Positions 16,784 through 17,562 of a stretch of DNA of 64,000 nucleotides are shown here, in pieces. Source of the stretch: a virus (taxonomy: Duplodnaviria; Heunggongvirae; Uroviricota; Caudoviricetes); the IMG/VR virus record IMGVR_UViG_3300029702_000002; one strand, 5' to 3'. Positions within the stretch are counted from its first letter, which is position 1. Each line of letters starts with the position of its first letter. The position numbers and the translations under genes were made by a program. The notes under the pieces are model-generated. The model was given only the letters and a program-made list of their open reading frames with translations. It was not told the origin of the DNA and made no database searches.

Positions 16784-17049
16784 AATTCGGCACTGCCAGT
16801 ATTTATTACTCAACAGTGCCAATCGCGACGGTTTAGTTTCTGCCAGGAAACGCACCGCTACTTGCACTTTTCGTTAGTGCCAGACGCTTTCGACTTCGCT
16901 CAATAGTAGAAGGCAAAATCTTTAAGTAGATGATGTTTCTGAGGACTGCACCTACTTTGTAATTTATACAATGTGATGTATGGAATCATTTGTTGTGAAA
17001 ACAGGCACCAATGGCAACAGTGGTTAAACCTACACAACTATCCTGTCTT

Positions 17050-17171
17050 CACAACGTTGAGGCCACTACTCCGATTGAATGTTTGCCCAACATGTTACAT
17101 ATCAACGCTCGCCGGTATCTCTGTGAATAGAACCTTAGAATTGATAAAAATGTAATGGCCTCAACGTTGTG
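17050..17171. repeat. perfect 15-bp inverted repeat pair flanking a 92-bp segment
   Basis: CACAACGTTGAGGCC (17050-17064) and GGCCTCAACGTTGTG (17157-17171) are exact reverse complements; inside a non-coding tract. Confidence 0.6.
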
Positions 17172-17247
17172 TGCTGGCTAACCATACCAGCCGGGCTACG
17201 TCGCCGCTTTTTAACCCAGTATAAACGACATAATTGAACAAAATGAC

Positions 17248-17357
17248 GTAACAGGATGGGCGGTCATTGGCTAAGAATCCGGGAGTCGTATATGAGTTGA
17301 AAATATACTGACCGCCCATCCTGTTACTTCATCGGAGGGAACATTCATGTTCCCTCC
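17248..17357. other. two strong stem-loops: 19-bp stem with 42-nt loop, then an 11-bp hairpin
   Basis: GTAACAGGATGGGCGGTCA (17248-17266) pairs perfectly with TGACCGCCCATCCTGTTAC (17309-17327); ggagggaacat-tc-atgttccctcc at 17334-17357. Confidence 0.6.
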
Positions 17358-17531
17358 TGCGTTCTGCAATCACACTCGCTCAGTGTGTCCCATTTCGGTA
17401 ACGAGGCTGGAAACTGACCTCGCTGGTGTTTGGCTTATTAGGCTACTGCCAGATAGACTTCTTCGTTTGCACTTGTATTTAAGTTCAAACAGTCGCGTCT
17501 CAACGAAAACAAAGTCATCTTATACATAAAA

Positions 17532-17553
17532 GATAAGTAAGTAAATACTTATC
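17532..17553. promoter_or_regulatory. palindromic intergenic motif GATAAGTA-N6-TACTTATC
   Basis: Exact 8-bp inverted arms; member of a motif family recurring in many intergenic regions (see findings). Confidence 0.45.
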
Positions 17554-17562
17554 ATTGTGTTT

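Follow-up and report, generated by a model that had tools for sequence, protein, structure and literature searches.

The stretch of DNA analysed here (the window: 64,000 nt, IMG/VR record IMGVR_UViG_3300029702_000002) is an SSU5-like phage-plasmid of Escherichia coli. It contains a 779-bp tract (16784-17562) between a tRNA-Asn gene (16709-16783, minus strand) and a 96-codon coding sequence (17563-17853, minus strand), and the subject of this report is a candidate RNA element read from the minus strand of that tract. Its first module, of about 180 nt (17510 to 17334), combines a short open reading frame (ORF) resembling the tag template of transfer-messenger RNA (tmRNA) with a 5′ domain complementary to the tmRNA of the host, and the comparisons below place it in an RNA family of many enterobacterial phages. 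In minus-strand order the region reads helicase, primase, ligase, three small genes, the tract, tRNA-Asn, tRNA-Thr and tRNA-Ser. ARAGORN found three tRNAs and no tmRNA in the window, and a Pfam search with ten neighbouring proteins identified the ligase and a glutaredoxin alone. A nucleotide search demonstrated that the tract is 100% identical to plasmid CP057798, about 98% identical to Escherichia phage Cyrano, and about 77-81% identical to Salmonella phage SSU5 and to relatives from Enterobacter, Cronobacter, Klebsiella and Yersinia. We regard the tract, from its position and predicted folding, as the long, highly structured 5′ leader of the tRNA operon of the phage-plasmid. The coordinates of its features are collected in the table.

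Table. Features of the tract and its downstream neighbours (window coordinates)
Feature	Position	Strand	Details
AT-rich palindrome AATGATAAGTA/TACTTATCTTT	17529-17556	-	loop contains the -35 hexamer
Sigma-70-like promoter	17517-17545	-	-35 TTTACT (17545-17540), 17-nt spacer, -10 TAAGAT (17522-17517)
Anti-tmRNA domain	17487-17510	-	complementarity to E. coli tmRNA nt 82-104
tmRNA-like tag ORF, no start codon	17435-17470	-	ANEEVYLAVA, then two stops; 26 nucleotide variants
Pseudoknot PKa	17388-17423	-	stem 1 17423-17418/17406-17401; stem 2 loop 17412-17408/17392-17388
Pseudoknot PKb, stem 1	17365-17387	-	17387-17383 with 17375-17371
Terminal hairpin of the tmRNA-like RNA	17334-17357	-	sequence varies in relatives, pairing kept
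Hairpin H2	17243-17332	-	24-bp stem, 42-nt loop; compensatory CAGGA/TCCTG to CAGAA/TTCTG to CGAGA/TCTCG
Hairpin H3	within 17173-17233	-	17233-17224 with 17205-17196; RNAalifold
Hairpin H4	17191-17173	-	RNAalifold; one G-C to A-U change
Hairpin H5 (122-bp unit bounded by inverted repeats)	17050-17171	-	20-bp stem, variable 82-nt interior
Conserved 15-mer ATGATTCCATACATC	16975-16989	-	outside the tmRNA-like RNA
tRNA-Asn, tRNA-Thr, STnc100-like long-helix module (~16395-16630), tRNA-Ser	16331-16783	-	downstream of the tract

The tag ORF of the window reads GCA AAC GAA GAA GUC UAU CUG GCA GUA GCC UAA UAA (ANEEVYLAVA and two stops), and the tag frame of E. coli tmRNA reads GCA AAC GAC GAA AAC UAC GCU UUA GCA GCU UAA UAA (ANDENYALAA and two stops): the two share their length, the resume codon, the first eight nucleotides and the double stop. 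The frame lacks a start codon, and HK620 and SSU5 have in-frame stops a short way ahead of it. An A-rich linker (17486-17471) precedes it, and the A at -4, where tmRNA has its frame-setting A86, never varies. Copies of the ORF were sampled by pattern scans of IMG/VR, with a second scan anchored outside the tag to obtain an unbiased sample. All 26 distinct ORF sequences have ten codons and stop at the same position, with TAA, TAG and TGA interchanging. Codon 6 always specifies Tyr or Phe (UAU, UAC, UUU or UUC), variation in codons 8 and 10 is confined to the third position, and codons 3-5 remain acidic or polar; the changes across variants are synonymous or conservative. This variation has the pattern expected of a translated tag, and the intactness of the ORF in every copy argues that it is read. 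The covariance-model search of the tract that a preliminary description of this DNA had proposed was run against Rfam: at permissive thresholds tmRNA models aligned weakly with the tag region only, and none reached its threshold.

The sigma-70-like promoter upstream of the module predicts a transcription start near 17510. Its hexamers and their spacing are conserved and the spacer sequence is variable, not only among SSU5 types but also in Felix copies (TTGACA-17-TAAGAT) and in the type represented by locus L014 (TTTACC-17-TATAGT). Just two blocks are invariant in the sequence ahead of the tag: GCGAC and, at the predicted start 7 nt past the -10 hexamer, GUUUUCG.

Downstream of the ORF, 81 unique copies were parsed into two H-type pseudoknots. 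PKa stem 1 conforms to GYRRGG/CCYYRU in five compensatory versions; in PKa stem 2 the loops CCGA, CCAG, CCAA, UUCCA and CUCCA pair with UCGG, CUGG, UUGG, UGGGA/UGGAA and UGGAG, respectively; and PKb stem 1 occurs in six versions. PKa has five to six compensatory variants per stem, at approximately 100% pairing. PKb stem 2 was found as GCCC/GGGC, GCCCUGA/UCAGGGC, GCCCAC/GUGGGC, GGCGGGAG/CUCCCGCC (in DNA letters, GGCGGGAG/CTCCCGCC) and GACGGGAG/CUCCCGUC. Across 52 distinct lambdoid and Felix copies, 99.9% of cells in PKa and PKb stem 1 are paired, with compensatory (double) changes in 7 of the 15 pairs; none of 500 shuffles reached the observed score, and slid controls paired at 31-53%. The copy in the window has both PKa and PKb stem 1. 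The module is closed by the terminal hairpin, a homologue of the long AAGAGCAY/RGTGCTCTT helix seen in lambdoid and Felix copies. No equivalent of the tmRNA pseudoknot PK1 was found in the element.

The tRNA-like half of tmRNA is missing from the module. ARAGORN detected no tmRNA in 32 related loci, including HK620, Carvaje, Michonne and 28 IMG/VR loci; inspection of the tract by eye revealed no GGTTCGANTCC-type T-arm motif; and Rfam returned tRNAs only, both for the window at the gathering threshold and for 10 lambdoid loci. In Michonne the entire element fits into 248 nt between two tRNA genes. Lacking a tRNA-like domain, the module would be neither chargeable nor able to enter the ribosome on its own, and, together with the missing start codon, this leaves a partnership with host tmRNA as the only route we see by which the ORF could be read. 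Side observations bear on tRNA-derived sequence near the element: in some of the lambdoid and Carvaje copies (L005 1440-1290, L009, L015), a T-arm-like hairpin (e.g. AUGGGUUCGAGUCCCAU) occupies the variable helix tip after the pseudoknots, directly preceding the 3′ strand of the helix, and looks like a tRNA-derived insert.

Such a partnership is suggested by the 5′ domain, which was compared with ssrA from the E. coli K-12 genome. Block 1, GUUUUCGUUG (17510-17501), pairs with tmRNA nt 95-104 (codons 2-5), and block 2, GCGACUGUUU (17496-17487), pairs with nt 82-91, which include U85, A86 and the resume codon. The resulting duplex of 10 + 10 bp in the window has a free energy of -26.3 kcal/mol, where shuffled sequences give -11 ± 3. 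No other site in tmRNA pairs as well, and the cofold minimum-energy structure contains this one too; duplexfold run on the two whole molecules permits huge loops and was uninformative. All 42 distinct 5′ domains pair with tmRNA nt 75/81-106 at -21.7 to -32.6 kcal/mol (shuffles about -11 ± 3; p ≤ 0.005 for each against shuffled domains). Lambdoid 5′ domains are identical to the reverse complement of tmRNA 75-106 at 23 of 23 and 25 of 29 positions, with small deletions. Differences between subtypes retain pairing (A-U88/G.U88, C-G87/U.G87, G.U85/A-U85), as in the 5′ blocks of Felix (GCGUCUAUUUU), L014 (GCGAUUAUUUU) and L064 (GCGGCUGUUUUU).

A 5′ domain that folds back on its own tag region was also considered and rejected: this pairing is weaker than that with host tmRNA in every copy. 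Mean free energies were -28.0 kcal/mol for host tmRNA and -15.0 for the element's own equivalent region, with the host the stronger partner in 60 of 60 unique copies. The antisense copy is 72-100% identical to host tmRNA, whereas identity of the sense copy is down to 56-62%. A stretch common to the host and phage templates, GCAAACGA, falls between the paired blocks, and this avoidance fits a 5′ domain that discriminates host from self. By these comparisons, the conserved complementarity to tmRNA exceeds both chance and self-complementarity. In cell-free systems the action of tmRNA is suppressed by DNA oligonucleotides directed at the same part of the molecule (PMC3384345).

A distant search with the tract retrieved at least 317 phage records, most of which match only about 100 nt (window 17368-17522). 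The family is also present in at least 773 plasmid records, in more than 120 IMG/VR contigs (pattern scans) and in at least 137 of 5,426 complete E. coli chromosomes, always in unannotated DNA that adjoins tRNAs or lies inside late leaders. In Felix-O1-like myophages the element is located within tRNA clusters (between tRNA-Ile and tRNA-Arg in Michonne), and in the Klebsiella siphophage Carvaje it adjoins tRNA-Ser. In HK620 (L003 1216-1923) it occupies the Q-antiterminated late leader, between qut/pR′ and the late terminator tQ, a position implying that lambdoid phages would produce it at the late stage only, within the leader RNA. A scan of species-representative genomes gave three true matches only (Buttiauxella, Kluyvera and Pseudocitrobacter); it revealed no copy outside Enterobacterales, and no carrier whose host has a different tmRNA and would allow a test of trans-covariation. 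The family therefore appears to be restricted to mobile elements of Enterobacterales. Among its carriers, Yersinia pestis plasmid pFra/pMT1 (L218 ~1700-1500, minus strand) was observed to have the promoter, the anti-tmRNA domain and the tag ORF (encoding ANEDTYLAVA) in full, as well as hairpins homologous to window 17357-17050; the homologous tract ends near caf1R, in the F1 capsule operon.

The remainder of the tract is also highly structured. The preliminary description had reported long inverted repeats here, and a repeat search recovered each of them. The perfect 15-bp pair enclosing 92 bp is the core of longer arms (17050-17069/17152-17171; 20 nt, 95% complementary), and the perfect 19-bp stem with a 42-nt loop is likewise the core of 24-nt arms (17243-17266/17309-17332; 96% complementary). 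The 11-bp hairpin is perfect (17334-17344/17347-17357), and the palindromic motif was found at 17529-17539/17546-17556. The density of secondary structure noted there is borne out by comparison with dinucleotide shuffles: the minus strand of a 727-nt stretch folds at -256.5 kcal/mol against -196 ± 7 for shuffled sequence (z -8.8), and the plus strand at -237.7 kcal/mol (z -8.0).

An alignment of 19 diverse SSU5-type tracts analysed with RNAalifold yielded five hairpins, with compensatory changes in 20 of 65 predicted pairs. Within the five hairpins, G-U combinations (minus-strand reading) outnumber A-C combinations by 165 to 10, and within the core element by 106 to 0, in counts for which the structure had been predicted on the minus strand. 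This excess points to an RNA of the same sense as the tRNAs, not to a DNA cruciform or a plus-strand RNA. The 122-bp unit (H5), which had been singled out for comparison with related genomes, keeps its position throughout the SSU5-like relatives examined, the most divergent ones excepted, and its arms co-vary among them (GAGGCC/GGCCTC, GAGACC/GGTCTC, GAGATC/GATCTC). We interpret the hairpins from 17332 to 17050 as further conserved RNA modules of the tRNA-operon leader; they are similar to the long helices (CACAAC...GUUGUG, with variable tips) by which the element is flanked in lambdoid prophages. Of the three interpretations offered by the preliminary description, structured non-coding RNA is thus favoured by the compensatory changes and by G-U pairs that fit a minus-strand transcript only, and the replication origin and the miniature inverted-repeat transposable element (MITE) are not; the minus-strand tag template and the anti-tmRNA domain had escaped it.

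We lean slightly towards the view that the element acts on trans-translation through pairing with tmRNA. The tract would be transcribed on the minus strand from the sigma-70-like promoter (~17545-17517), yielding a module composed of a 5′ antisense domain, a diverged direct copy of the messenger-like region of tmRNA, pseudoknots and a closing hairpin. The 5′ domain would anneal to the single-stranded start of the host tmRNA template and mask the host tag template, including the resume codon, as anti-tmRNA oligonucleotides do in vitro. The duplex would at the same time tether the phage template to the host tRNA-like domain beside PK1, where the phage strand would exit the duplex and continue through an A-rich linker of 16-30 nt to its GCA. 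Trans-translation would then be either inhibited or re-programmed to a tag ending in LAVA rather than ...YALAA. Both the pairing in vivo and any effect on tagging are what we infer from the sequences compared here.

A more specific version, a template swap, is one we hold only tentatively and think somewhat doubtful: the RNA would dock at the PK1 exit, occlude the host resume codon and offer its own 10-codon frame. If so, rescued ribosomes would add AN[DE]xx[YF]LAVA in place of ANDENYALAA, from a hybrid two-piece tmRNA consisting of the host tRNA-like domain and a viral template, and the fate of tagged proteins would be altered with ribosome rescue retained. ClpX prefers [LFYW]-[LAR]-L-A-A, and LVA ends act as degrons. 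Natural two-piece tmRNAs work with the template on a separate, base-paired RNA.

Several points weigh against an action through tmRNA pairing. We know of no case in which a template held solely by a 20-30-bp duplex was shown to be read by ribosomes. The promoter in the window is sub-consensus (8 of 12 matches) and below the threshold of a simple scan for promoters and terminators, which gave nothing useful within the tract; minus-strand transcription and its start at ~17510 are predictions. Conservation of the amino acids AN...LAVA could stem in part from constraint at the level of RNA or structure, and PKb stem 2, clear in lambdoid and Felix copies, is doubtful and unsupported in SSU5-type copies. 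Within 128 kb of window sequence, duplexfold also found two chance sites that pair equally well, so that single-sequence complementarity amounts to only about p 0.005 for a 363-nt target; the antisense case, given the weakness of a single match, rests on conservation across subtypes and on location. These two sites (38149-38190, plus strand, -30.6 kcal/mol; 16569-16618, plus strand, -28.1 kcal/mol), the best predicted in the window for the 5′ domain and used here as chance calibration, could also be real cis-encoded targets. Codon 5 of Salmonella tmRNA is ACC, not AAC, and would leave one mismatch that is uncompensated in SSU5 copies. Moreover, the target region of tmRNA may be occupied by SmpB, S1 or ribosomes in vivo.

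Among the alternatives, the tract could be a leader or processing scaffold of the tRNA operon, or a set of ordinary Hfq-type small RNAs, in which the tmRNA-like and anti-tmRNA segments are relics of a captured, folded-back tmRNA fragment and play no part in trans-translation. The element does always sit with tRNAs or in late leaders, its neighbouring long-helix modules resemble the prophage small RNAs STnc100 and PasD, and one DNA rearrangement could yield both an inverted and a direct copy of tmRNA. Relics should nevertheless decay, and the ORF is intact in all real copies despite repeated turnover of the pseudoknot stems; the antisense copy has remained far closer to host tmRNA than the sense copy; pairing with the host was kept and self-pairing lost. 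We consider this explanation unlikely, while giving it real weight. We think it distinctly improbable that the module is the coding piece of a genuine phage two-piece (circularly permuted) tmRNA that is independent of host tmRNA and has its acceptor piece elsewhere, an idea for which the Felix-like Citrobacter phage Moogle gives grounds. In its genome ARAGORN calls a 749-nt permuted 'tmRNA*' whose tag is ANDNVFLAVA, and genome announcements list ssrA, from ARAGORN, in Moogle and Felix O1 (PMC4319497, PMC4392139); the T-arm-like inserts of some lambdoid copies point the same way. Inspection of Moogle (L217) located a circularly permuted tRNA-like unit at ~3120-3050 (minus strand), in a 427-nt unannotated gap of the tRNA cluster, in the order T arm GAAGGUUCGAUUCCUUC, 3′ acceptor strand ACCCUUC, G-CCA, AACA, 5′ acceptor strand GAAGGGU and D arm. 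This unit lies ~520 nt upstream of the tag, however, with three tRNA genes and the element's own promoter intervening, and its acceptor 3:70 pair is A-U instead of the G.U of alanine identity; the ssrA mentions arise because ARAGORN joins the tag to it. The RefSeq record of Moogle places the tRNA genes on the strand opposite to that given by ARAGORN and by the Michonne record, probably through an annotation strand error. Among RefSeq viruses, a survey of tmRNAs published in 2014 accepted none from an enterobacterial phage (PMC4131195), and on this outcome and the inspection of Moogle we do not file the element as a tmRNA. The ARAGORN-negative loci and the missing T-arm motif argue likewise, no separate acceptor piece is encoded in the window according to ARAGORN, and a self-sufficient two-piece tmRNA would leave the conserved antisense match to host tmRNA unexplained.

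The readings at the level of DNA or protein fare worse. A replication origin built on cruciforms or initiator sites would suit a tract that adjoins helicase, primase and ligase genes, carries many inverted repeats and folds well on both strands. It has no direct-repeat iterons, though, its DnaA-box-like sites occur at background density and its single AT-rich stretch is the promoter; its stems tolerate G-U and not A-C, which points to one RNA strand, and the core module recurs in the tRNA clusters and late leaders of unrelated phages. An origin is thus very improbable. We find it scarcely credible that the 122-bp unit is a MITE or that the tract holds small plus-strand protein-coding genes. 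The unit does have terminal inverted repeats, but its arms are single-copy in the 64 kb, it is fixed in position among all but the most divergent SSU5-like relatives, and its arms show the compensatory changes described above. Two 60-aa plus-strand ORFs do exist (16973-17155 and 17347-17529), with variable sites distributed 22/27/25 over codon positions 1/2/3, showing no bias to the third, and frameshifts in relatives; they are not conserved as proteins, in agreement with the earlier verdict that no ORF of 60 aa or more is convincing here.

Other features of the region lie outside the tmRNA-like RNA. The arms of the palindrome at 17529-17556 co-vary in the L014 type (TAGGTA/TACCTA versus TAAGTA/TACTTA), and it may serve as an operator or as terminator for the small gene upstream. 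The 15-mer ATGATTCCATACATC, noted previously as a recombinase half-site copy and present as described, occurs five times in the window against 0.18 expected: 7878-7892 (plus), 13909-13923 (plus), 13925-13939 (minus), 16975-16989 (minus) and 17988-18002 (minus). The pair at 13909-13939 is inverted about a short spacer, in a layout like that of a tyrosine-recombinase core site or an operator, and the copy at 17988-18002 overlaps the start codon of a 50-codon ORF. The copy in the tract is invariant in all SSU5-like relatives, and alignment demonstrated that the ORF starting from its ATG is not kept; being conserved without heading a conserved ORF, it is probably a protein-binding half-site. Between tRNA-Thr and tRNA-Ser, the long-helix module (CACAACAGGAAAGAGCAUU...CAGUGCUCUUUUCGUUGUG; ~16395-16630, minus strand) gave a near-threshold match to Rfam STnc100 (RF02076) at 16395-16563 (44.1 bits against a gathering score of 47), and this covariance model had no match within the tract. 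Phage Cyrano lacks the module, its tRNA-Thr and tRNA-Ser being adjacent, and the flanking tRNAs are ~90% identical to the tRNA region of phage P1.

Full-text literature searches returned no functional description of the element, the only traces being ARAGORN-based remarks on 'ssrA' in Felix-like phages; nor did they turn up any natural RNA directed against tmRNA or any virus known to rewrite the tag for degradation. The enteropathogenic E. coli paper on RIL-seq does not mention ssrA. Bacteria rescue their ribosomes mainly through trans-translation, which is also a drug target. The family described here is unannotated in hundreds of enterobacterial phages, in prophages of pathogenic E. coli, in phage-plasmids of the Salmonella Typhi type and in Y. 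pestis pFra/pMT1. An action through tmRNA, if true, would represent a new way for phages to take over the quality control of host translation, would account for old genetic links between tmRNA and phage growth, and would provide a natural design for programmable tags. It predicts duplexes between tmRNA and the element and, in the template-swap version, peptides with C-terminal ...LAVA.

Among known systems, GOLLD and ROOL are likewise long structured phage non-coding RNAs adjoining tRNA genes; the element has no Rfam match to them at E ≤ 10, and its architecture is modular and different. STnc100, PasD and the phage anti-sRNAs AgvB and AsxR are closer in setting, as prophage-borne small RNAs of the same late-leader and tRNA neighbourhoods that act in trans against host RNA, and long AAGAGCA/TGCTCTT helix modules flank the element; STnc100 and PasD are reported as Hfq small RNAs of prophages (bioRxiv 10.64898/2026.05.13.724894). 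Unlike these, the tag module is unmatched by their Rfam families, and its proposed target is tmRNA rather than an mRNA or small RNA. Synthetic anti-ssrA and anti-tmRNA oligonucleotides, used in ribosome display and cell-free translation, are directed at the same start of the tag-coding region, whereas the element would be a natural RNA that pairs with bulges and is fused to a substitute template and pseudoknots. With tmRNA itself (SsrA, RF00023, clan CL00001) the element shares the A-rich single-stranded lead-in, the A at -4, the GCA resume codon with AACGA after it, a 10-codon tag (ANDxxY...A type) without a start codon, one or more immediate stops, and predicted downstream pseudoknots, of which PKb has a supported second stem in lambdoid and Felix copies only. 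It differs in having no acceptor stem, T arm or D-loop analogue, and so would not be alanylatable; in its length of ~180 nt; in a tag that ends in LAVA instead of ALAA; in the additional 5′ domain antisense to tmRNA; and in going undetected, in the window, by ARAGORN and at Rfam gathering thresholds. The coding piece of two-piece tmRNA offers the precedent of a template on an RNA separate from the chargeable part and joined to it by base pairing, although the pairing proposed here is with the template of a complete host tmRNA and not with an acceptor piece through P2 and acceptor helices. Finally, the 'TLD-only' RNA (TLD, tRNA-like domain) of mycobacteriophage DS6A is also a partial tmRNA of a phage, thought to interfere with host trans-translation (PMC4131195): DS6A retains the tRNA-like domain, and the present family retains the messenger-like domain.

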